Source of the DNA: Flavobacteriales bacterium
GTDB lineage: Bacteria; Bacteroidota; Bacteroidia; Flavobacteriales_F; PHOS-HE28
Assembly: GCA_017987895.1 (NCBI GenBank)
Contig: JAGNSU010000001.1
Coordinates: forward strand, 48,606-112,605
Length of the DNA stretch: 64,000 nt
Direction: 5' to 3'
Under the pieces are notes generated by a model. It made no database searches. It was not told the origin of the DNA and worked only from the letters and a program-made list of their open reading frames with translations. Shown in pieces: positions 6,649 to 35,889 of this stretch (positions are counted from its first letter, which is position 1; each line of letters begins with the position of its first letter). The translations under genes were made by a program, and so were the position numbers.

Positions 6649-8196
6649 ATGATGAATACAAGGATGATAAGTCGAGCATGGGCCATGGCGGTAACGGCAT
6701 GCACATTTGCATCGGTCGCTCCGGCCCAGGAAGATGGCCCCGCACGATATCTCTATCCCAACGGTCAGGTTAGTAGTGAGGGTGTCTTGGTGAACGGTAG
6801 GCCGGAAGGATATTGGAGGACCTACTACGAGACGGGCACATTGCGCTCCGAGGGGAACAGGAAGCGTTTCGAGCTGGATAGTATTTGGAAATTCTACGCG
6901 GCTGAGGGTTGGGTCACTACGACGATCACTTATGCGCAGGACAAGAAGAACGGCCCCCAAAGGAAGTACAGCAGCGACGGGGTGTTGCTGAGCGAGGAAT
7001 TGTTCTCCAATGATCTGAAGGAAGGTGAGAGCCGATACTACCACCCGAACGGCGCGGTGCAGAAGGTCGTCCCCTTCGTGGCCGGCAAGGAAGAGGGGAG
7101 GGGATTCGAGTACGCGGAGGACGGTCGCCTAGTGGGTTTGCTCACCTATGGCGGGGGTATGCTAAGGAGAAGGGAGACGATAAATAAGCTGGACGCGAAC
7201 GGTTGGAGGCAGGGCCCTTGGAAGGAGTTCTACGCCAATGGAAAGGTGCGTTGGGAAGGCACTTTCGTGGATGATAAGCGACAAGGTATTTTCAAGGAGT
7301 ACGATAGCAACGGCAGCCTCAAGGAAATGGTGAAGTATGACCAGGACCTTGTCGATGTGGGATCACGAGCGGCCATGACGCTCACCATCAAGAACACGTA
7401 CCACACCAATGGCAAAGTGGCCAGTATTGGGAGTTACAGTAAGCAAGGGACTAAAGAGGGACTTTTCCGTGAGTTCGATGAGCAGGGGAGCGTTCGTTCC
7501 GCAGCGATCTATGCGGAGGACCGTCTATTACGCGAAGGCTCGGTGGATGAGCGGGGCGCGCCGCAGGGAAAATGGGTGGAGTATTACGCGACCGGAGAGA
7601 AGCGCGCGGAGGGGGAATACAAGGATGGTAGAAGGGAGGGAGAGTGGACCTTTTTCCATCGGAGCGGTGCGGTGGAGCAAAAGGGGCGTTACCAGACAGG
7701 TCTAGCACAGAACACCTGGAGGTGGTTCTACGAGAGCGGCAAGCTGCACCGGGAGGAGAATTACCGCAAAGGCAAAGAGGACGGGGCCGCCGTGGAATAT
7801 GATGAGGAAGGGGTGGTGATCACCCAGGGGGAGTACATCGACGGTCGCAAAGAAGGTGCTTGGACCTACGAGGTCGGGGACCACTCCGAGAAGGGATCTT
7901 ACAAGGACGGCTTGAAGGAAGGAGAATGGGTGCATACCTATGCGAACGGCAGGAGGAGCTTCGAGGGTGATTTCGTGAACGGAGAGCCCAACGGAAGGCA
8001 TCGCTGGTGGTGGCCGAACGGACAGATCAAGCTGGAAGGCCGTTATGCGGTAGGTCTGGAGCAAGGCGATTTTGAACACCACGCCCCGGATGGCACCTTG
8101 CTGCTCACAATCCGCTACAAGGACGGGGCGGAGATCCGCATTGACGGCGAAAAGGTCCCTCCCCCGTTCGAACCCGGAGGAGAGGGGATCCCTTGA
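6649..8196 (+). CDS. secreted MORN-repeat-variant (YwqK-like) repeat protein
   Basis: Signal peptide. Roughly 20 tandem copies of a 23-aa G-x-W-x-x-Y-Y-x-N-G-x-x-x-x-E-G motif (MORN_2 type). Confidence 0.75.
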   Translation: MMNTRMISRAWAMAVTACTFASVAPAQEDGPARYLYPNGQVSSEGVLVNGRPEGYWRTYYETGTLRSEGNRKRFELDSIWKFYAAEGWVTTTITYAQDKKNGPQRKYSSDGVLLSEELFSNDLKEGESRYYHPNGAVQKVVPFVAGKEEGRGFEYAEDGRLVGLLTYGGGMLRRRETINKLDANGWRQGPWKEFYANGKVRWEGTFVDDKRQGIFKEYDSNGSLKEMVKYDQDLVDVGSRAAMTLTIKNTYHTNGKVASIGSYSKQGTKEGLFREFDEQGSVRSAAIYAEDRLLREGSVDERGAPQGKWVEYYATGEKRAEGEYKDGRREGEWTFFHRSGAVEQKGRYQTGLAQNTWRWFYESGKLHREENYRKGKEDGAAVEYDEEGVVITQGEYIDGRKEGAWTYEVGDHSEKGSYKDGLKEGEWVHTYANGRRSFEGDFVNGEPNGRHRWWWPNGQIKLEGRYAVGLEQGDFEHHAPDGTLLLTIRYKDGAEIRIDGEKVPPPFEPGGEGIP

Positions 8197-27651: not shown

Positions 27652-29127
27652 TCAGCGGGTTCGCGAAGGAAGGGTATAGGTCAGTTGCGCCAAGCCGCCC
27701 CAACGCCTCGGCAGGGCTTGGAGGGGAGCATGGGAAGAGAACAGCGTTAGGCCAGTATGATAGGCCGGACCAGCGGAGATGACCCAACGCTCGCCGACCC
27801 GGAATCCGGCGCTCACGCCGATCTGGGCGCTTAGAAGACCGTAGGAGCGGTCTTTCTCCGGGAGTTCCTCCGCAGTTAATGTTTCCACCCCAGCGTTGTT
27901 GGCCCCACTTACCAGTACGTAGCCCTCCCGCAACGTATGCCATTCGCCGGCCAGAGCCATATTAAGCCCCAACTTCCATCGACGCGATCCCCAGTCCCAA
28001 CCCAACAGCACCGGCACGCGGATCACCGAAGAGCGATTGGTCCCCGTGAACGTCTCGCTACGCTGTTCCACGACCACCGCGGTATCTGTCACGACCGCGA
28101 TCACCATTTCATCGAAAGTGGCGAACTGGGTGGTCACCGCCATGGTCATGTCCTGGCGCTGGTCCATGTGATCGAACGAAGAACGACCCTTTCCGAATTC
28201 GACACCCGAGCCAGCCCAAAAACCGCTGTGCCAGGAACGACCGAAGTACAGGCCATAGAGCAGGTCGCGCTTCTTCTCCTCTGACTCGCGCCAGGCAGCC
28301 ACCAGTTCCTCGTCGTCTCCGCTCCAGTGGCGGGTTACGGAATACATACCCACACCAGCGCCGACCCACCATTCACCATGGGGAAGGACATAGTCCGCCG
28401 GGGGCGTAACACTCTTCGTCGTCGAGGAGGGAGGATCCAATGGCATCAGGCTTTTCCAAGGCTCCATGCGGACCGGATCAGCCGCGATGAGCGGGCGTTG
28501 GCCGCCAAATGCTGAAACACCGGTCGCCGCGACCTGTGACGGAGCCGCATGATCCACGCGGCCGGTTTCGGAGGTGCCACCAGAAGGGCCCGTATCAGCG
28601 TTGACCAAGGGTTCGGCGTCGGCGTACTGCACGGACCGTTCTTCAGCCTTGCGACCTTCATCGATGTTGTCCGCTAGGGGGCGGTTCTCCTCTGCGCGGT
28701 CGGGGTTGGTTACCTCTGTGGGTGGGATCTCGGGAATGTATGCCGTTGGAACAGATCCGCTTCCGCGGCCAGCAACCAGAGTTGCCTGTTCGGGTGCGTC
28801 AGAATAGACCTCGGAGAGGGGCATGATCTCCGGAGCGGTCGTCCTGGGTGCTTGTACTTCCGGCTGGGTGTTCGAGGTCGGACGTGCAGCATACGTGCCT
28901 TGCGGACCAGAGGAAGAGGCCGCGTACCACGTCGTGCCCCCACCGCACAACAGGAGGACAACAAGTAGTGGCCACCGACGCCGCAAGCGAATGAGCTGGC
29001 GATGGCCCCAGGAGCGCTGGTGCATCACCCCTTCCAGAACCCCGGAAGGAGGTGCCATCTCGGCGTTCGCCAGGCCCTGCCTGAACAGATCATCTATCGG
29101 ATGCTTTTCCCGCATGGGATGGCTCAT
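27652..29127 (-). CDS. ECF-associated membrane protein: anti-sigma-like N-terminus, one TM helix, Pro/Ser/Thr-rich linker, C-terminal beta-barrel-like domain
   Basis: Start overlaps the sigma gene stop. HPIDDLFRQGL N-terminus and TM helix LLVVLLLCGG. The last ~230 aa show alternating hydrophobic beta-strand patterns (WWVGAGVGMYS, WKLGLNMALAGEW). Confidence 0.5.
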   Translation of the reverse strand: MSHPMREKHPIDDLFRQGLANAEMAPPSGVLEGVMHQRSWGHRQLIRLRRRWPLLVVLLLCGGGTTWYAASSSGPQGTYAARPTSNTQPEVQAPRTTAPEIMPLSEVYSDAPEQATLVAGRGSGSVPTAYIPEIPPTEVTNPDRAEENRPLADNIDEGRKAEERSVQYADAEPLVNADTGPSGGTSETGRVDHAAPSQVAATGVSAFGGQRPLIAADPVRMEPWKSLMPLDPPSSTTKSVTPPADYVLPHGEWWVGAGVGMYSVTRHWSGDDEELVAAWRESEEKKRDLLYGLYFGRSWHSGFWAGSGVEFGKGRSSFDHMDQRQDMTMAVTTQFATFDEMVIAVVTDTAVVVEQRSETFTGTNRSSVIRVPVLLGWDWGSRRWKLGLNMALAGEWHTLREGYVLVSGANNAGVETLTAEELPEKDRSYGLLSAQIGVSAGFRVGERWVISAGPAYHTGLTLFSSHAPLQALPRRWGGLAQLTYTLPSRTR

Positions 29128-29680
29128 GTATTGCGTGAATGCGTTCTTGTAACATGCGGCGCGCCTTGGCTAATTGGCTGCGCGAAGTGCTTTCTCCGCA
29201 ACCCAACATGGCGGCTATCTCCGCATGGTCGTATCCTTCTATGGCGTACAGATTGAACACCATCCGGTATCCATCCGGTAAAGCCGCCACCAGTGCGAGC
29301 AACTCCTGCGTTCCGAGGTCGCCCACCACGGTTTCCGGCACCGGGCTCTCGGGCAGCTTTTCCAGTCCGAACCGTTCTTGCTGGAAGGCCTTGCGCCGGT
29401 AGTGATTGATCGCGGTATGCACCATGATCCTCCGCACCCAGCCCTCCAGCGAACCATCCTGGCGGAAGCCGCCCAGCTTGTCGAACACTCGGATAAAACC
29501 CTCCTGCATCATGTCCTCGGCTTCCAGTTCGTGGCGGGCATAGCGGAGACACACGGCGTACATGCGCCGTGCATAGCGGGCGTAGAGCAACTCCTGACAG
29601 CGACGGTCCTCCTTCAGGCAGCCCTCCACCAACTCGCGTTCCGTGAGTTCGCGCACTGTTGTGGTTCGTTCCGTTGACAT
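29090..29680 (-). CDS. RNA polymerase ECF-type sigma-70 factor
   Basis: Region 2 (YARRMYAVCLRYARHELEAEDMMQEGFIRVF) and region 4 (GYDHAEIAAMLGCGESTSRSQLAKAR). Confidence 0.9.
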   Translation of the reverse strand: MSTERTTTVRELTERELVEGCLKEDRRCQELLYARYARRMYAVCLRYARHELEAEDMMQEGFIRVFDKLGGFRQDGSLEGWVRRIMVHTAINHYRRKAFQQERFGLEKLPESPVPETVVGDLGTQELLALVAALPDGYRMVFNLYAIEGYDHAEIAAMLGCGESTSRSQLAKARRMLQERIHAIHEPSHAGKASDR

Positions 29681-29726
29681 GACGGGTGTGGTGGCTCGAC
29701 CGCTGCCTGACCGGCCGATCGGGCTC

Positions 29727-29734
29727 GGCCCGCA
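29727..29734. repeat. target-site duplication, left copy (GGCCCGCA)
   Basis: An identical 8-mer abuts the outside of both terminal inverted repeats. Confidence 0.8.
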
Positions 29735-29760
29735 GGCAACTACATACCAGTTGGGACAGG
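29735..29760. repeat. terminal inverted repeat, left (GGCAACTACATACCAGTTGGGACAGG)
   Basis: Exact reverse complement of 34284-34309. Confidence 0.9.
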
Positions 29761-30017
29761 GGTAAGAACGTGCTTTGGCGGCAAGCCCATTTGGCTTTTT
29801 AGGTGGTGTCCGCCTTGCCCGCCATTGCCCAAGGGATGGGGCTCCCCCGGCAGGCTCAAAAGGCGTCCTGCCAGTGCCCTACTTCACGGGGTGTGGGTGG
29901 TGGTCACTATCGAAAGAGCGGAGTGAAGATACCCCCTCCTTGGTCGGGGAGAAATACCCCCTAGTGAATTACCTCGCTTAACGGTTTATTTGCATTGGAA
30001 CCAATTCTATCATCATC

Positions 30018-30623
30018 ATGGAAGTAACTTCAGAGGTAATCGTCGTCAGTATTGTCACGAGCGTGATCGCGTCGGCGATCTTCTTTGTGATCATGTACTT
30101 CCTGCGGCCTACGATGCGGGTGTCCGATCAAATAGCCGAGCACATCAATGAAGAGGGCCGAAAGGTTTATTCCATCAAGGTCTATAACAGCAACCTTGTC
30201 AGGGCGGTTAGTGTAGAGGTAGAGGGCCTTATCATCCGAAGGATACCTAAGGACACGGACATCCTTTTGAAGGCCACGAACCTATCCTTCACACGTGATC
30301 GGATGTTCAAGCTTACCGGCTGGTGGCCCTGGGACAAGGAGTCGAAATACGCGTGGCGGCTCTCAATAATTGATGATGTTCGCACGTTGTGGAGCGATGG
30401 GCAGCAGTACATTGAAATAGTGGTGACCGCCCGGCACCCGTGGAGCGGGTCGACGCGGTGGTTCATCAAGCGGTTCTACAATGGGGACGACACCTTGATC
30501 ACTGGCGAATTTGACGGGGGAACTAGCATGGTAATCCGGAGAAAGGCGCTAGGCGCCTATGCCTCAGCACCTTATCCCCCTCAAAACCCTATCCCACCCT
30601 ATGGAGCGGCCCCGCTACTCTGA
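30018..30623 (+). CDS. hypothetical membrane-anchored protein (transposon cargo)
   Basis: 201 aa. N-terminal TM helix VIVVSIVTSVIASAIFFVIMYFL followed by a ~150-aa Trp-rich domain and a Pro-rich tail. I recognise no family. Codon usage is AT-shifted. Confidence 0.6.
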   Translation: MEVTSEVIVVSIVTSVIASAIFFVIMYFLRPTMRVSDQIAEHINEEGRKVYSIKVYNSNLVRAVSVEVEGLIIRRIPKDTDILLKATNLSFTRDRMFKLTGWWPWDKESKYAWRLSIIDDVRTLWSDGQQYIEIVVTARHPWSGSTRWFIKRFYNGDDTLITGEFDGGTSMVIRRKALGAYASAPYPPQNPIPPYGAAPLL

Positions 30624-30799
30624 ACACCCCGCTGTGGACGCTTGCCAGTGGCACGCTATTCGTCCTAATTTGGTGGGTGTCACCTTTGTCACCTAAGGTT
30701 CGTACAATTGCAACCCATATACACCCTGAGCATCATGGCTAAGAATCATAAGGACATCGAGTTCCTCTAGCAGGGACGCGGAAACCGGAAACTCTCGGA

Positions 30800-30830
30800 G
30801 GGGGCCCCATAAGGGCCCTTTTCCGTTTCA
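30800..30830 (+). terminator. hairpin plus T-tract (candidate intrinsic terminator)
   Basis: GGGCCC stem, CATAA loop, GGGCCC stem, followed by TTTTCCGTTTC. Confidence 0.45.
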
Positions 30831-31136
30831 AGGCGCGGGGTGTCGATTCCACGTACCGCCCTCCCGCATCCACATTCCCACCTCAGCTGAGGTCGTCACT
30901 TCCAGTTCTCGGGTCGATAACGGTCTTCGACATCGGCTGGGGGTGCGAACAGGATCCATGATCCGCGCCCATACCCATCGGAGCACCTTCACCGCTTAGC
31001 TTTCTTGGCTGCCTTCTTTCGCTTGGCCTTTGGCGGTTTCACCGCCTTGGTCATGGCAACACGAAGCACCCCGTCAAGGGTGCCGTGGATCTTCAGAGGC
31101 TGTTCCTTCTTTGCCATGGATCGAAGGTAGCGCCGC

Positions 31137-32069
31137 TCACTTTCCGATCAGTGCGCGGTAGGTGAGGCGGCGACCATCGGCGTTGAACACGGCGATGTTG
31201 AACTTGTCTTGCTGGCACACTTGGCGTTCGTTGAAACGGAAAGCGTATTCGTTGCAGTAACGGTGCAAGTGTTTCGGGCTCACTTGGTGGTAGATCCCGT
31301 TGATCCCCCTCTTCAACAAGGACCAAAAATTCTCGATCCCGTTGGTGTGTGCGTTGCCCTTCACGTATTCACCGGCCGCGTGTTTCACGGTTTGGTGCGC
31401 GTAGGTGCGGCTAAGACCACGGTAGGCCAAGTGTTCGTCGGTGTTGATAGTGGTGCCGATCGCCACATGCGCCCGCATTACGGGCTGGATCGTGGTCTGC
31501 TTGCTGTCGGCAATGGGACGCACCACCACGCGACCGCCACGCTCCAAAATCCCCAGGACAGCGGCCTTGCCCTTCCCGCCCTGGGTGCCTTCGGTACGCT
31601 TGTTCGCGTGCTTGTTCTTTTCAGCGCCGCCGATATATGCCTCGTCGATCTCAACGGTTCCGGTCAGCATTACCGGTTCAAACTCCTTCAGCATTTCACG
31701 GATCCGGCAGAGCAGGAACCACGCGGTCTTTTGTGTGATACCCAGGTTGCGGTGCAACTGAAGGGAGGAAACACCCTTGCTGCTATTCGCGGTCAGGTAG
31801 ATAGCTGCGAACCACACGCTCAAAGGGAGCTTGGTGTTCTCGAAGATCGTCCCGACGGTAACGCTGAACTTCTTTCCACACTCCTTAGAAGAGCACTTGT
31901 AACGCTTGCCCGCTTCGATCGAATAGGCGCCTACCGTGCCACAGAAAGGGCAGCAGGGGATACCATCTTGACCCCAGCGAAGGGAAGCAAGGTGAGCGCG
32001 GCAAGTTGCTTCGTCGGCAAAGTGCTCGTTCAGTTTGATCAGCGTCTCGAAGTTCGTCGTCGGCATCAT
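31137..32069 (-). CDS. IS1595-family transposase (zinc-ribbon + DDE)
   Basis: N-terminal CCPFCG...YKCSSKECGKKFS zinc ribbon. DDE_Tnp_IS1595 blocks EIDEAYIGG, TDEHLAY, HTNGIENFWSLLKRGINGIYHQVSPKHLHRYCNEYAFRFN. The start at MM (32069/32066) is preferred over 32105. Confidence 0.92.
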   Translation of the reverse strand: MMPTTNFETLIKLNEHFADEATCRAHLASLRWGQDGIPCCPFCGTVGAYSIEAGKRYKCSSKECGKKFSVTVGTIFENTKLPLSVWFAAIYLTANSSKGVSSLQLHRNLGITQKTAWFLLCRIREMLKEFEPVMLTGTVEIDEAYIGGAEKNKHANKRTEGTQGGKGKAAVLGILERGGRVVVRPIADSKQTTIQPVMRAHVAIGTTINTDEHLAYRGLSRTYAHQTVKHAAGEYVKGNAHTNGIENFWSLLKRGINGIYHQVSPKHLHRYCNEYAFRFNERQVCQQDKFNIAVFNADGRRLTYRALIGK

Positions 32070-32077
32070 GCACCAAA

Positions 32078-32099
32078 TGTATATACAGACGTATATACG
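32078..32099. promoter_or_regulatory. two adjacent GTATATAC palindromes (TGTATATACA, CGTATATACG), candidate operator
   Basis: Boxes at 32079-32086 and 32091-32098, between the RHH ORF stop and the transposase start. Confidence 0.4.
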
Positions 32100-32101
32100 T
32101 G

Positions 32102-32260
32102 TCAAGTATCTGACGACATTTCCTTCTCTAAAGTTTCCCGGATGAACTCAGAAACCTTTTTCCCCCGCTTTTTCGCCGCCTTCGCGATACGTGCCTTGAA
32201 CTTGGGATCGACCCGGACCAGTAGGTTCGTGTCCTTCAACGGGGGTGGTTTGATCGCCAT
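32102..32260 (-). CDS. small ribbon-helix-helix (CopG/Arc-like) protein, 52 aa, below the ORF-track cutoff
   Basis: Manual translation gives MAIKPPPLKDTNLLVRVDPKFKARIAKAAKKRGKKVSEFIRETLEKEMSSDT*. It shows a beta-strand, helix, helix pattern typical of RHH. It lies directly upstream of the transposase and in the same orientation. Confidence 0.55.
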   Translation of the reverse strand: MAIKPPPLKDTNLLVRVDPKFKARIAKAAKKRGKKVSEFIRETLEKEMSSDT

Positions 32261-32279
32261 GGGTGCAATGATAGGGCCT

Positions 32280-32287
32280 GTATATAC
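32280..32287. promoter_or_regulatory. GTATATAC palindrome, third copy
   Basis: Lies 20 nt upstream of the RHH start codon. Confidence 0.35.
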
Positions 32288-32382
32288 GTCCCCAAAGGCG
32301 CTGAAACCCCGTTTGGGAAGGGCTTAGGCCGGAAAGGCCTGCTATCATTGGTGAAAATAGTTGTGCCGGTTGCGCGTCCGTT

Positions 32383-32390
32383 GTATATAC
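32383..32390. promoter_or_regulatory. GTATATAC palindrome, fourth copy
   Basis: Overlaps TATACTTG (32386-32393), a one-mismatch match to the TAnnTTTG -7 box on the + strand. Confidence 0.35.
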
Positions 32391-32621
32391 TTGCAGCGAG
32401 CCCGGCCCCCAAACCGGGAACCGGGCTCGCTTGAAATACTGGGCTGCGTTGAGGCTGTTACTCTCGATCTAAGGCCGGGGCTGCTACCCCCGGTTGGACG
32501 GCTAATGGGACCGCCTTCGACCCGCAGCTTTTGAAATAAGGAGACCCACACCCCCTTCCCCTGCCGGGGCTAACCCGCGCGGTTCCTAGCGCCAGCATGC
32601 GGGGGCGTGAGCCAGATGATG

Positions 32622-32649
32622 AGGCCCCGCAAGGGGCCTTGTCGTTTCC
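32622..32649 (+). terminator. GNRA-looped hairpin plus T-rich tail
   Basis: AGGCCCC-GCAA-GGGGCCT followed by TGTCGTTTCC. Sits 3 nt from the stop of the convergent gene 32652-33068, so it may act in both directions. Confidence 0.45.
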
Positions 32650-32651
32650 TA

Positions 32652-33068
32652 TTAGTCCGGTATGCGCCATCGTCCGTCTTTTCCTAGTTCTACCTCTTCC
32701 CGCTTCATAAGCGCATGTAACGTTACCCGCAGCCGCAAACGCACGTCAGCGGGTTCCTTCCCGGAAAACCTTCCCAGCCGATCCGCTTCTTCGATTATCT
32801 CATCTAGGGATGCGGATTCGTGGGTTTTCAAGTAGTCCATGATGTGCTTCGTCCACCCCACGGGCTGAAGCAGGGTCTTGGCAGACCTAGCTTCTCGGAT
32901 AACGTCTAGTTCGTCATCGTCCGGGCTGAATGATGGGTCCTCGCTACGAATCACGGTAGTGAGGGCCCGCGCCGCTTCGATCTTTTCCTGACCGGAGCGA
33001 ATCAGCGCTTTCCCCTGGGCAATCAGGGCGCGCCGAAACTCAACTAGTGGCTTCAGGTCGGATTTCAT
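32652..33068 (-). CDS. hypothetical small protein with C-terminal winged-helix (HARE-HTH/Mrr_N-like) region (transposon cargo)
   Basis: The ATG at 33068 (MKSDLKPLVEF) gives 138 aa. The segment WTKHIMDYLKTHESASLDEIIEEA...TLHALMKREEVELGKDGRWRI resembles HARE-HTH-type wHTH; that assignment is an inference. Confidence 0.55.
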   Translation of the reverse strand: MKSDLKPLVEFRRALIAQGKALIRSGQEKIEAARALTTVIRSEDPSFSPDDDELDVIREARSAKTLLQPVGWTKHIMDYLKTHESASLDEIIEEADRLGRFSGKEPADVRLRLRVTLHALMKREEVELGKDGRWRIPD

Positions 33069-33521
33069 GGTGCGAATGTAGCGCGTTCTCTCGGAAAAGA
33101 GACGGATCAAACTACAAAGATTGTACACGCCGCCGTGTGGGTCATTTTGCACGCCCCACATATAGTGAACGGGCGCGCGCGAATTATGAAGTCTTTAGCA
33201 GCGGAAAAAAGACGCGTTCGAGGTGCTTTAGCTCGTGCTCACTTGTCCTTTTAAGGATCAAGGACTTTCACTACTATGCCGCCCGCCTTCCCCCGGCACC
33301 TGGTTCCTTGGAAACCCGGAAAACATTTTCTCCGAATCGTTGTATTTTCGGATTCTATCCGTAATGTTTTGTATTACACTTTGTTTTAATGTTGTAGACG
33401 TTGTTAGATCGTTGACGACAACGATACAAAGGGGCATACAACACTTTAGCGCAGTGTAGACCGCTTAAACGTGGTAGGCCCCCGATCTAGCGCAGTGCTG
33501 CTCAACGGCTAGCTTGGCGGT

Positions 33522-34229
33522 ATGACTGCTGAGGATAATGGCGAGATAGTGTTCTCTATTCTGAATCAGAATGCTCCGACCGGTGCGTGGATTAACCTCA
33601 AGGACTGGCTGGGAATTGAAGGACTAACGGACACCGCTTCAATAAAGGACGCCCTACACTATTGTGAGCACAGGGATTGGATCGAGGCCAGCCCTTCGCA
33701 CAAGGACATTCGTGTCCGGGAAGAAATGGGGCCAGTGATTCCGGGTACCAGGACCAGGCAAACGCTGATTGCCATGACGCTGGCGAATACCTCGTTCACG
33801 GCGCGCCTCACCACAAGGGGAATTGAAGAGCAGAAGGCCCGGACAGCCGCCGTGATCCAGCGCGAATTGATCGCTAAGCAGAATGATTCCTTCAGCGAGG
33901 CAATGAACCTCGCGCGAATTGGGGCAGAGGCGGCAAAGGAAAGCGCTGCCGCAACCAAGGATGCCGTTGCGCAAGCTCGCACGGCGAATGGGGTCGCGCG
34001 AACCTCCGCAATCGTTGCCATCGTCTCGGCCGTTGCCGCTATCGTTGCCGCTGTTTGGCCAATGTTCAATGCATCCGATACCAAGCAAGACAGATTGATA
34101 GTACTGCCGTTGCTATACACGCCGCACGGAACAGATAGTGACCCCACAGGGTCCAGCCCCAAGCCGTCGGCTGACTCAGTTCCTGGTCTAGCTGTCGATA
34201 CCACGCGGAAAGATTCCGCCACGCGCTAG
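33522..34229 (+). CDS. hypothetical protein: N-terminal globular domain, coiled coil, one TM helix, Pro/Ser-rich tail (transposon cargo)
   Basis: 235 aa. Ala/Lys/Glu-rich helical middle region, TM helix AIVAIVSAVAAIVAAVWPMF. I recognise no family. Confidence 0.55.
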   Translation: MTAEDNGEIVFSILNQNAPTGAWINLKDWLGIEGLTDTASIKDALHYCEHRDWIEASPSHKDIRVREEMGPVIPGTRTRQTLIAMTLANTSFTARLTTRGIEEQKARTAAVIQRELIAKQNDSFSEAMNLARIGAEAAKESAAATKDAVAQARTANGVARTSAIVAIVSAVAAIVAAVWPMFNASDTKQDRLIVLPLLYTPHGTDSDPTGSSPKPSADSVPGLAVDTTRKDSATR

Positions 34230-34283
34230 GCGCTTTCACGGCTGCCCGTATTTGAGCAACGCCGCGCTGGGTGGGCCTTCCGG

Positions 34284-34309
34284 CCTGTCCCAACTGGTAT
34301 GTAGTTGCC
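34284..34309. repeat. terminal inverted repeat, right (CCTGTCCCAACTGGTATGTAGTTGCC)
   Basis: Exact reverse complement of 29735-29760. Confidence 0.9.
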
Positions 34310-34317
34310 GGCCCGCA
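34310..34317. repeat. target-site duplication, right copy (GGCCCGCA)
   Basis: Identical to 29727-29734. Confidence 0.8.
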
Positions 34318-34514
34318 CAATGCAAGGTATTGAAAATGAGGCCTGTATCATGAGTAGGATTGAGCGATCATTAGCCGGTGACAAACGACTGTATTCGACT
34401 ACAAATGGAGAACAACCGGATCCCGCTTTCCGGCCGATGAACGTTTGCAGCGGAGTTCAACAACAACCCGAACTCCGGATAACGAAACAGTCAACCCACA
34501 AACACGGAAGACAG

Positions 34515-34874
34515 ATGAACACCATGAAGAACCTCGTGCAACTGATCGGCAACCTGGGTAACGACCCGGAAGTGAAGGAGACCGCCCAAGGGCGCAAAAT
34601 GGCCCGCCTCAGCGTGGCCACCAACGAGAGCTATACCAACAAGAGCGGTGACCGCATCACCGACACCCAGTGGCACACGGTCGTTGCGTGGGGAACCCAG
34701 GCAGAACAGGCCGCACAAATGCTGCGAAAAGGCGCCAAAGTCGCCTTACAAGGCAAGTTGGTACACCGCAGCTACGAAGGCAAGGATGGACAGAAGCGCT
34801 ACATCACGGAGGTGGTGATGAGCGAGTTCCAGGTGGTGCCCAAGAGCGAACCCGAAACCGTGAGCGCCGATTGA
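34515..34874 (+). CDS. ssb: short single-stranded DNA-binding protein (OB fold only), paralogue 1
   Basis: MNTMKNLVQLIGNLGNDPE...TQWHTVVAWG...KVALQGKLVHRSYEGKDGQKRYITEVV is a typical SSB OB fold. 119 aa with no acidic C-terminal tip. Confidence 0.8.
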   Translation: MNTMKNLVQLIGNLGNDPEVKETAQGRKMARLSVATNESYTNKSGDRITDTQWHTVVAWGTQAEQAAQMLRKGAKVALQGKLVHRSYEGKDGQKRYITEVVMSEFQVVPKSEPETVSAD

Positions 34875-34906
34875 CCCATTGCATTGAACGACTAAAAGAA
34901 AAGAAC

Positions 34907-35254
34907 ATGAATACCTTGAAGAACAAAGTGCAGCTCATCGGCTTCCTCGGCTTCGACCCGGAGGTGCGTGAGATCGCCAAAGGCCGCAAGGTGGCCCGCA
35001 TCAGCGTGGCCACGCATACCAGCCACAGGAACGAAGCAGGGGACCGTGTGACCAGTACCCAGTGGCACACGGTCGTGGCCTGGGGCCACACCGCTGAAAT
35101 GGTGGAGCGCTTGCTGCGCAAAGGCACCGGCGTGGTGCTCGAGGGCCGCCTGGTGCACCGCAGCTATCAGACCAAGGAGGGCGGAAAGCGCCAGGTGAGC
35201 GAGGTGGTCCTGAACGACTTCCAACTCCTGAGTTCCACCGCCAAGGCAGCCTGA
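34907..35254 (+). CDS. ssb: short single-stranded DNA-binding protein, paralogue 2
   Basis: MNTLKNKVQLIGFLGFDPE...TQWHTVVAWG...LEGRLVHRSYQTKEGGKRQVSEVV. 115 aa and colinear with paralogue 1. Confidence 0.8.
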   Translation: MNTLKNKVQLIGFLGFDPEVREIAKGRKVARISVATHTSHRNEAGDRVTSTQWHTVVAWGHTAEMVERLLRKGTGVVLEGRLVHRSYQTKEGGKRQVSEVVLNDFQLLSSTAKAA

Positions 35255-35279
35255 AGGGCTCCTCCCGCCGCTCTTTCGC

Positions 35280-35309
35280 AAGGGGCCGTTCCGAAAGGAG
35301 CGGCCCCTT
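35280..35309. terminator. hairpin between convergent genes
   Basis: AAGGGGCCG, a 12-nt loop, then CGGCCCCTT, directly after the ssb paralogue 2 stop. Confidence 0.45.
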
Positions 35310-35409
35310 CTGCGTTCATGACGGCAACCCGAAACGCAGGAAGGGCCACCCCCACCGGGCAGCCCCTCCGCTGTGCCAGGCCGGGTGGACACACCCGGAC
35401 CGGTCATTC

Positions 35410-35889
35410 TTAGCGCGATGCGGTAACGTTCTCTTGGGCCAAGGTCACCAGCGTGTGGTCGTAATGGACCTTCATCAGGCCGCTGCCTTTGGTGAAGGTG
35501 ATGTGACCCACCGGAGCGGCGAAGGCCAGATCGTTGTTCGGGCTCTGGGGCAGCAGTTGCACGTCGAAGCGAACGGTGCGATCGGTCTCGTCCTTGAACT
35601 TGGGGAAGCAGTTCACTGTGTTCACCTCCACCACTTTGGTGATGTAGCCGTTCTGCTTGAAGGTGAGGTGAACGCGGGTGTTCTCCTCCACGGTGATCTT
35701 GAACTTGCCATTGGCTGAGATGGCCAGGCTATCGGTGCTTCCGTCCGCGCGGTCGATCACCACCATGCCTTTGCGGTAACCGCCATCCAGCGTTTCGATC
35801 TGGCCGTGGAAGGTGATCTGCTTGCTGGCGAAGATGGCACCAGTGGCGAGGATCAGGATCGCGGTGAGGAGGAGGTTCAGGGGCTTCAT
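35410..35889 (-). CDS. secreted hypothetical protein with CarboxypepD_reg-like beta-sandwich N-terminal region
   Basis: Signal peptide MKPLNLLLTAILILATGAIFA. The segment ISANGKFKITVEENTRVHLTFKQNGYITKVVEV matches the pattern of that fold. Confidence 0.55.
   Translation of the reverse strand: MKPLNLLLTAILILATGAIFASKQITFHGQIETLDGGYRKGMVVIDRADGSTDSLAISANGKFKITVEENTRVHLTFKQNGYITKVVEVNTVNCFPKFKDETDRTVRFDVQLLPQSPNNDLAFAAPVGHITFTKGSGLMKVHYDHTLVTLAQENVTASR

Follow-up and report, generated by a model that had tools for sequence, protein, structure and literature searches.

Architecture of the element and its insertion site

The window analyzed here is a 64,000-nt stretch of contig JAGNSU010000001.1 from a Flavobacteriales bacterium (GCA_017987895.1), in which a passenger-carrying insertion sequence (IS) lies between a gene for an extracytoplasmic function (ECF)-type sigma factor and a short ssb gene. 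The element is bounded by perfect 26-bp terminal inverted repeats (IRs): direct reading showed that GGCAACTACATACCAGTTGGGACAGG at 29735–29760 (plus strand, transposase-3′ end) is the exact reverse complement of positions 34284–34309 (minus strand, transposase-5′ end), which gives an IR-bounded length of 4,575 bp. The octamer GGCCCGCA abuts each IR arm on its outer side, at 29727–29734 on the left and, identically, at 34310–34317 on the right. The IR pair was also the longest inverted pair reported by a repeat finder within 29000–35000, and a search with the 26-mer allowing up to three mismatches returned the two IR sites only in the 64 kb, with 0 expected from 100 shuffles. Hence, the perfect repeats and the abutting 8-bp duplication reported in a first-pass annotation of this DNA were confirmed. 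Since each octamer is preceded by a C, the duplication could formally be read as 9 bp long, in which case the ends would be unequal; a length of 8 bp was preferred, as it leaves the ends symmetric and agrees with the family. The GC content of the element was 55.6% versus 60.2% in the remaining window, and a lower value was found in only 0.5% of the 4,575-bp windows of the 64 kb. The AT shift of the interior, which had been described as visible, is thus real, but it is modest rather than large.

The transposase is encoded on the minus strand at 31137–32069 by one uninterrupted open reading frame (ORF) of 310 aa without a frameshift, and no other transposase is present inside the element. The protein matched the Pfam profiles Zn_ribbon_IS1595 (PF12760, 2.9e-10, residues 19–66) and DDE_Tnp_IS1595 (PF12762, 7.5e-46, full profile), as well as the NCBIfam model NF033547 “IS1595 family transposase” (4.2e-62), in agreement with the architecture proposed for the single internal transposase in the first-pass annotation. 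In an alignment of 34 homologues the residues D142, D211, and E246 were invariant, and so were the zinc-ribbon cysteines C40, C43, C59, and C64. The zinc ribbon is present in every IS1595 subgroup except IS1016. The element thus combines the features of the IS1595 family, which are a DDE domain, an N-terminal zinc ribbon, an 8-bp duplication such as that formed by GGCCCGCA on both sides, ends that both start with 5′-GG (GGCAAC...), and a single transposase ORF. It also carries three passenger ORFs (201, 138, and 235 aa) inside the IRs, as is characteristic of a transporter IS (tIS). The same features have been described for IS1595 members, which have a single transposase with zinc-ribbon and DDE domains and make 8-bp duplications (PMC8101967), and for tIS, which are IS-like elements with passenger genes reported so far from the IS1595 and IS66 families only (TnCentral preprint), in agreement with the duplications and the passenger carriers that the first-pass annotation ascribed to this family. 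Plasmid records name such proteins no finer than “IS1595 family transposase.” Among the ISfinder subgroups, the nearest are the ISNwi1 type with passenger genes and the ISNha5 type. The ISNwi1 subgroup has the end ggnnatTAT, a DDEK motif, and a size of 1.75–4.75 kb with passengers. The end of the element, GGCAACTAC, agrees with this end at 8/9 positions, the consensus over the relatives, GGyAAyTATATAC, agrees at 9/9, K253 lies seven residues after E246, and 4,575 bp is within the size range, so that ISNwi1 is a candidate subgroup for the element.

In the orientation of the transposase, the order of the features is IR, 235-aa ORF (opposite strand), 138-aa ORF, a ribbon-helix-helix (RHH) ORF, transposase, a small ORF of 42 aa, 201-aa ORF (opposite strand), and IR. 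The transposase is therefore central, with the 201-aa ORF on one side and the 138-aa and 235-aa ORFs on the other, as the first-pass annotation had noted. Outside the element, the sigma gene is on the minus strand at 29090–29680 (Pfam Sigma70_r2 and Sigma70_r4_2), and its ATG is 54 nt from the element end, which suggests that the upstream control region of this gene was displaced by 4.6 kb. On the other side, the ATG of the ssb gene (34515–34874, plus strand, 119 aa, Pfam SSB 5.5e-31) is 205 nt from the element end. This gene is the first of two tandem short ssb genes, which lack the usual acidic C-terminal tail. The pair, at 34515–35254 in the window and at 7010–7750 in locus L002 (handles with an L denote fetched loci), shows 76% DNA identity over the first 93 nt, and the duplication is also present in an element-free sister species.

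This sister Flavobacteriales species, in which the sigma protein is >90% identical, carries the sigma and ssb genes adjacent to each other, ∼250 nt apart, in ten contigs. The empty site reconstructed by joining the flanks was colinear with the sister contigs, to which it was 85.6% identical over 478 nt without a 4.6-kb gap, and the IR of the element was absent from all ten contigs. The octamer of the sister species is GGGGGGTG versus GGCCCGCA in the window. Hence, the joined flanks are a plausible empty site, as had been proposed, but the site in the sister species is homologous and uninterrupted rather than identical. The insertion is shared by three assemblies in total, which are that of the window and two others. 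In GCA_017990515.1, a metagenome-assembled genome (MAG), the exact transposase is on a contig 99.98% identical to the window over 12.3 kb, which covers the ssb side and 11 nt of the sigma side. In GCA_020047475.1 the contig encodes the exact sigma protein, and the left junction is spanned into the sigma gene. Two MAG contigs break at element ends: that of GCA_017990515.1 (L001) starts at window position 29724, 11 nt outside the left IR, while that of the relative L175 ends inside the right IR. Such breaks could arise if filled and empty sites coexist in those populations or if additional copies are present there.

Relatives of the element and their landing upstream of ssb genes

The transposase had 7,781 homologues at E ≤ 1e-20, mostly from Bacteroidota. 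Loci were fetched around close relatives (64–83% identity) and distant ones, and bounded elements were defined by a script that looked for inverted ends of 24 nt accompanied by an exact 8-bp duplication. Bounded elements were found in 92/170 relative loci, with ends starting with GG in 90/92. The set with three hand-defined additions comprised 93 bounded elements, all of 1.9–8.7 kb, and no copy of the ∼1-kb size of a minimal IS was found among them; every bounded relative in the examined set carries cargo. The first-pass annotation had suggested looking for further copies of the IR, and near-identical 26-bp IRs indeed bound the relatives L173–L184, including elements of 4,217 bp (L177, duplication TGCGTTTA), 2,650 bp (L180, GCGCACGG), 2,632 bp with perfect IRs (L181, CGAACGCG), 3,062 bp (L174, ATCCGAGA and ATCTGAGA), and 4,208 bp (L182, TTCCTTTT). 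Two further elements, of 4,241 bp (L173) and 2,953 bp (L184), have no duplication; L184 contains two transposase copies, and recombination between copies could yield ends of this kind. The presence of the same IR with differing 8-bp duplications at other sites shows the mobility of these relatives.

One contig (L176; ENA ERZ842397 NODE_9212, 2,957 bp, coverage 3.5) runs at 2876–2935 from the right IR through the 8 bp GCCATTTG into the left IR and onward into the interior of the element. The two ends are thus joined head to tail, with a spacer as long as a duplication, and the same element in L175 has the left flank GTCATTTG. The junction, the only one of its kind among all fetched loci, could represent a tandem copy or a circular form. 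The clade members L173, L182/L183, and L184 are located within phage-like or integrase-bearing gene strings, and 38 more distant relatives (L185–L222) are on IMG/VR viral contigs, which suggests that phages may ferry these elements. In the window, a hairpin with a T-run behind it, when read from the IR toward the interior, is weak (29780–29800), while strong forms are present ∼50–75 nt inside the transposase-3′ end in L024, L030, L031, L058, L078, L084, L174, L177, and L181. Transcription entering from outside could be stopped there.

Taken together, the family match, the sister-species site, the shared insertion, and the mobile relatives support the description of a complete IS1595-family transposon with cargo. 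Very probably, the element is an intact tIS of this family that is likely still mobile and that was inserted between the ECF sigma gene and the short ssb gene after the split from the sister species. In such an element the transposase would bind the 26-bp ends and make 8-bp staggered cuts in the target, and their repair would produce the duplication. The bias in landing site, the apparent repressor control, and the cargo in every bounded relative, which are described below and above, go beyond the earlier account.

The locations of the relatives showed a strong association with ssb genes. Ten distinct elements have a transposase 64–100% identical to that of the window, and six of them are located just upstream of a short ssb gene (window, L174, L175/L176, L177–L179, L180, and L181), while three (L173, L182/L183, and L184) are within phage-like DNA; L093 (62% identity) was not placed. 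Among more distant relatives (44–54% identity), nine more elements are upstream of ssb, in L013 (Dyadobacter), L024, L030 (Reichenbachiella), L031 (Flagellimonas), L038, L042, L058 (Dokdonia), L078 (Patiriisocius), and L084. In all 15 of these ssb-associated elements the 5′ end of the ssb gene faces the element, with its ATG 80–210 nt away. When the flank ORFs were clustered (n = 169), SSB was the only large recurrent family. The next two clusters, an ECF sigma factor and an unnamed gene with four loci each, are divergent neighbors of the same ssb genes, and the other recurrences were pairs. The duplications of the ssb-associated insertions are all mutually distinct. An alignment of the intergenic regions placed the insertions of the window, L174, and L175, which are from three species, at columns 161–168, 218–225, and 265–272, respectively; the window sequence is uninterrupted at the insertion site of L175, and L177 is ahead of a different ssb paralogue. 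The differing columns, paralogue, and duplications show that the ssb insertions are independent events. The transposases of the ssb-targeting lineages are 42–54% identical between lineages, and in a rough neighbor-joining tree the ssb-associated elements fell into several groups interleaved with others. A single origin of targeting was therefore rejected, and no transposase signature of targeting could be defined.

The targeted ssb genes share an array of three direct repeats with a 10–11-nt period, for example, ACAAACGACT ACAAACATTT ACAAACG. In the window, this array is a degenerate triple repeat in host DNA outside the element, ACAAACGACT GTATTCGACT ACAAATGG, at 34381–34408 on the plus strand. 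The end of the array is 92–121 nt before the ssb ATG (167 nt in L058; L175 was not scorable), and it is followed by a TAnnTTTG-type box and then by a 5′-leader hairpin; the array is also present in the element-free sister species, and in the window the insertion left the array, the promoter-like box, and the leader intact. Arrays with at least 18/21 matches were found at only seven loci in 1.74 Mb searched on both strands. Six of these adjoin a bounded element, and in the seventh, L042, the array is just upstream of ssb, beside the transposase. In the three phage-like clade loci and the 38 viral-contig loci, the elements were flanked by neither ssb nor the array. As a cis-element, the array, box, and hairpin (window 34381–34477) recur upstream of short (110–120 aa) ssb paralogues in Flavobacteriia and Cytophagia, in the window and in L013, L024, L030, L031, L038, L042, L058, L078, L084, L174, L177, L180, and L181. 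The sequence of the hairpin stem varies by species, that of the window being CGGAGTTC...GAACTCCG, and the cis-element had no match in Rfam.

The distance and the orientation of the insertions relative to the array were also constrained. Nine of the insertions have a transposase gene directed toward ssb. In eight of them, 16, 16, 16, 16, 17, 17, 18, and 18 nt separate the duplication from the array, and in the ninth (L174) the gap is ∼8 nt. Where the gene points away from ssb (L030, L177, L175, L038, and L013), the insertion is inside the third repeat or 1–11 nt after it. The transposase-3′ end thus faces the array in 14/15 elements, and the exception is the window copy, in which the transposase-5′ end faces the array across a 63-nt gap. 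These data indicate that the landing near the ssb array is non-random and reflects targeted insertion by this lineage.

Several candidate explanations of the selectivity were rejected. The array is unlike the IR and the subterminal sequences of the elements, which argues against end mimicry; no cargo gene common to the ssb-targeting elements could act as a target selector; and the RHH gene, like the small basic ORF, also occurs outside the ssb-targeting elements. The array is also not an SOS box, as it differs from both published Bacteroidetes motifs, which are GGA-N5-TCC and CTAA-N5-TTAG (PMC8565304). Most economically, a factor bound to the array, or the structure of the array itself, would guide the transposase complex. 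In the literature, we found no paper linking IS1595 elements to ssb and no description of target selectivity for the IS1595 family. In its full form the proposal is that a Bacteroidota tIS lineage homes to the ACAAACG triple repeat upstream of short ssb genes at a defined distance and in a defined orientation, by means of only one DDE transposase and perhaps an array-bound host protein, with no known selector, and that it delivers small defense or addiction loads to one chromosomal address. We consider the chances for and against this full form to be evenly balanced.

Passenger genes and a possible control region of the transposase

The three passenger ORFs were all called as genes in the NCBI assembly contig, while their products had no match in Pfam, NCBIfam, PADLOC, or the PDB sequences. 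The 201-aa protein (30018–30623, plus strand) was modeled by AlphaFold2 with a pLDDT of 85 as one N-terminal membrane helix followed by a β-sandwich. The best PDB folds for this model were KirBac3.1 and other inward-rectifier (Kir) channels (E 9e-9, TM-score normalized to the query ∼0.5), with the match covering the inner helix and the cytoplasmic domain, not the pore. As judged from this model, the protein could be a membrane-acting effector. A profile search collected 20 proteins, the query included, and the protein is also cargo in L017 and L030, at 24–27% identity. In the model of the 235-aa protein (33522–34229, plus strand; pLDDT 71), a winged-helix-like domain at the N terminus is followed by a long helix and by a membrane helix at the C terminus, and the matches to MarR-type folds were weak (E ∼0.2). 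The protein had five homologues among 1.84 billion representatives, with full-length matches at 33–40% identity. The 138-aa ORF (32652–33071, minus strand; its longest reading is 169 aa, to 33161) has a C-terminal winged-helix-like segment, and showed weak C-terminal similarity (24–27%) to the position-equivalent ORFs of L175, L173, and L177.

Among 150 cargo ORFs of the relatives, the commonest families were DNA methyltransferases, the Mrr-type nuclease (Mrr_cat), PIN, NYN, DUF3800, P63C, KilA-N, AIPR, RhuM, and SocA, and the cargo of L175 matched the PADLOC candidate HEC-09 at 4e-54. By analogy with these restriction, toxin, and abortive-infection genes, the passenger load of the window is most likely of a defense or addiction type.

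A possible control module is located ahead of the transposase gene. The RHH ORF (CopG/NikA-like, 52 aa, 32102–32260, minus strand) is 33 nt upstream of the transposase gene, and its product matched Pfam RHH_1 at 1.2e-4, which is above the cutoff of this model, and a NikA-like model at 2.1e-5. An RHH ORF is kept ahead of the transposase gene in L173, L175, L178, and L182. The interval from the RHH stop codon to the transposase ATG contains two GTATATAC palindromes (32079–32098), and two more are upstream of the RHH gene (32280–32287 and 32383–32390), one 20 nt and one ∼120 nt ahead of its ATG. These four copies, all within 32079–32390, are the only ones in the 64 kb, where 0.07 were expected. 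The second of the two palindromes between the RHH and transposase genes overlaps a TAcaTTTG box of the Bacteroidetes −7 type. The layout of the palindromes is the same in L173 and L177, and L175 has the covarying GTGTACAC at equivalent places. The RHH protein may thus bind the four palindromes, which overlap the promoter-like boxes of the RHH and transposase genes, and such an autoregulated repressor would keep the expression of the transposase low. A scan for sigma-70 promoters gave matches at the level of shuffled sequences, and this promoter type is wrong for Bacteroidota.

Between the 138-aa ORF and the RHH gene is a 391-nt noncoding spacer (32261–32651, GC 60.6%), which is rich in GC hairpins, for example, at 32396–32430, 32474–32495, and 32620–32640. 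A noncoding RNA in this spacer was considered and rejected, as there was no Rfam match and the sequence is poorly conserved in L173, L175, and L177. The transposase gene is followed directly by the 42-aa small basic ORF (30989–31117, minus strand), which contains the motif PLKI.GT.(D/E/N).VL.V and a K/R-rich tail. Equivalent ORFs with this motif are present in L173, L175, L177, and L180, and looser forms in L013, L020, L025, L027, and L034. We know of no described accessory peptide in the IS1595 family.

Alternative explanations and comparison with known systems

The repeated landing upstream of ssb could be explained without targeting in two ways. One ancient insertion could have been inherited vertically and become domesticated and immobile, and this would fit the fact that several carriers are related Flavobacteriales sharing the sigma–ssb synteny, as well as the decay of the L174 ends, which have six mismatches between the arms and a duplication matching at 7/8 positions. 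On the other hand, the insertion columns of the window, L174, and L175 differ, with the window intact at the L175 site, each copy has its own duplication, the sister species is element-free, and L177 is before a different ssb paralogue. The carriers also span Dyadobacter, Reichenbachiella, Flagellimonas, Dokdonia, and Patiriisocius, with transposases 42–54% identical, which makes inheritance of a single insertion very unlikely. Random or AT-favoring insertion, with the copies upstream of ssb merely surviving because the spot is harmless or because an essential neighbor shields them against deletion, is somewhat less improbable, though still unlikely. It is consistent with most of the distant relatives, which have AT-rich duplications and no recurrent neighbor, with the phage-borne copies at other sites, and with the window copy, which is off the canonical distance. 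Survival, however, cannot yield a spacing of 16–18 nt in 8/9 insertions of one orientation, nor a transposase-3′ end that faces the array in 14/15, and insertion at thousands of other intergenic sites ought to do no more harm, while no other flank family recurs among the 169 flank ORFs beyond the ssb-region neighbors and pairs.

Two other explanations concern the element itself. An assembly artefact or a chimeric join could be suspected as the source of the IR and the duplication, because every source is an assembly derived from metagenomes and two contigs break at element ends, that of one MAG 11 nt outside the left IR and that of L175 within an IR. This case, which had been raised in the first-pass annotation as one that could overturn its reading, did not hold, since the same insertion is present in two further assemblies, GCA_017990515.1 and GCA_020047475.1, in both of which the element is joined to host flank DNA, and contig breaks at IS ends are a normal effect of repeats or mixed populations; an artefact is thus extremely unlikely. 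The passenger genes could alternatively be decaying remnants or spurious ORFs in what would be just an oversized IS. None of the three proteins matched a curated family, and the families are tiny, 20 proteins including the query for the 201-aa protein and five homologues for the 235-aa protein. The recurrence of the 201-aa protein in two distant elements at 24–27% identity, together with its confident fold (pLDDT 85), suggests selection on the protein, and the full-length homologues of the 235-aa protein at 33–40% identity and the calling of all three ORFs in the NCBI contig also speak for genuine genes, which leaves the explanation by spurious cargo improbable.

Some observations weigh against the preferred interpretation of a mobile, ssb-homing tIS with defense-type cargo and a repressor. 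The window contains one copy, and all contigs on which the exact transposase sequence was found have this same insertion; no transposition event was observed, and the element is probably active as judged from its intactness. The window copy is off the spacing and orientation rule of its relatives, though it is in the same intergenic region, and three clade members occupy other sites, within phage-like DNA, and two of the three have no duplication, so that the targeting would be a preference and not absolute. The passenger proteins of the window had no match among the defense models of PADLOC, and their role is proposed by analogy. The position, rarity, and covariation of the palindromes suggest their role as operators and that of the RHH protein as a repressor. 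The placement in the ISNwi1 subgroup is tentative.

The element resembles other IS1595 tIS in its zinc-ribbon and DDE_Tnp_IS1595 domains, its 5′-GG ends, its 8-bp duplication, and its passengers inside the IRs, and as such it is one more passenger-carrying member of the family, which is routine. As far as we found, the RHH gene with palindromes before the transposase gene, the conserved small basic ORF after it, and the preference for ssb arrays have not been described for the IS1595 family. What rises above the routine is the apparent homing of the lineage to the ssb array, the repressor-type control module, and the three orphan passenger proteins. A known parallel for the homing is Tn7 at attTn7, where TnsD directs insertion downstream of glmS, as the relatives are also inserted at a near-fixed distance of 16–18 nt with fixed polarity and leave the host gene intact. 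Unlike in Tn7, there is a single DDE transposase and no TnsABCD-like machinery, no cargo gene or family is common to all ssb-targeting elements that could serve as a dedicated selector, insertion occurs in two modes, before and after the array, and the landmark is in a promoter region rather than at a coding end. The window copy is further unlike Tn7 in being off-register, with a 63-nt gap and the opposite polarity. In IS30 and IS911 an IS transposase also directs insertion beside a specific short sequence, but their targets resemble their own ends, while the ACAAACG array does not. The cargo of the relatives, which is rich in methyltransferases, Mrr-type nucleases, PIN/NYN, AIPR, and SocA proteins and includes the HEC-09 candidate, is similar to the defense and addiction genes on small transposons and other mobile elements, while the three passenger proteins of the window differ in matching no known defense model.

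If the homing is true, it would add a new way for a simple IS to choose its target, with a one-protein transposon finding a promoter-proximal repeat with near-nucleotide precision, and it would offer a testable system for target choice by simple transposases, possibly via tethering to a host DNA-binding protein. It would also define a fixed chromosomal address at which Flavobacteriia and Cytophagia gather small defense-type genes. The comparison flags a conserved, unexplained cis-element ahead of short ssb paralogues, which is possibly an ssb regulatory element, and the orphan passenger proteins, including the one-helix Kir-like membrane protein, are candidates for new defense or addiction functions.

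Two minor observations were also made. An Rfam scan of positions 29000–35500 at E ≤ 1 found nothing inside the element, and the sole match, on the minus strand at 35285–35363 outside it, was a sub-threshold similarity to the mir-BART20 family (28 bits versus a gathering threshold of 70), which is almost certainly due to chance. Among the relatives, a subclade from Acidobacteriota and other hosts with IRs ending in ...TTGACTnACC (L059, L061, L062, L079, L088, L117, L125, L133, L145, L146, L156, L159, L160, L170, L172, and L216) has many duplications of the form CTnnnnAG, which are often palindromic, including CTAATTAG three times, CTAGTTAG twice, CTAACTAG, and CTAAATAG. These duplications suggest that this subclade has a different target preference, at the level of the sequence.

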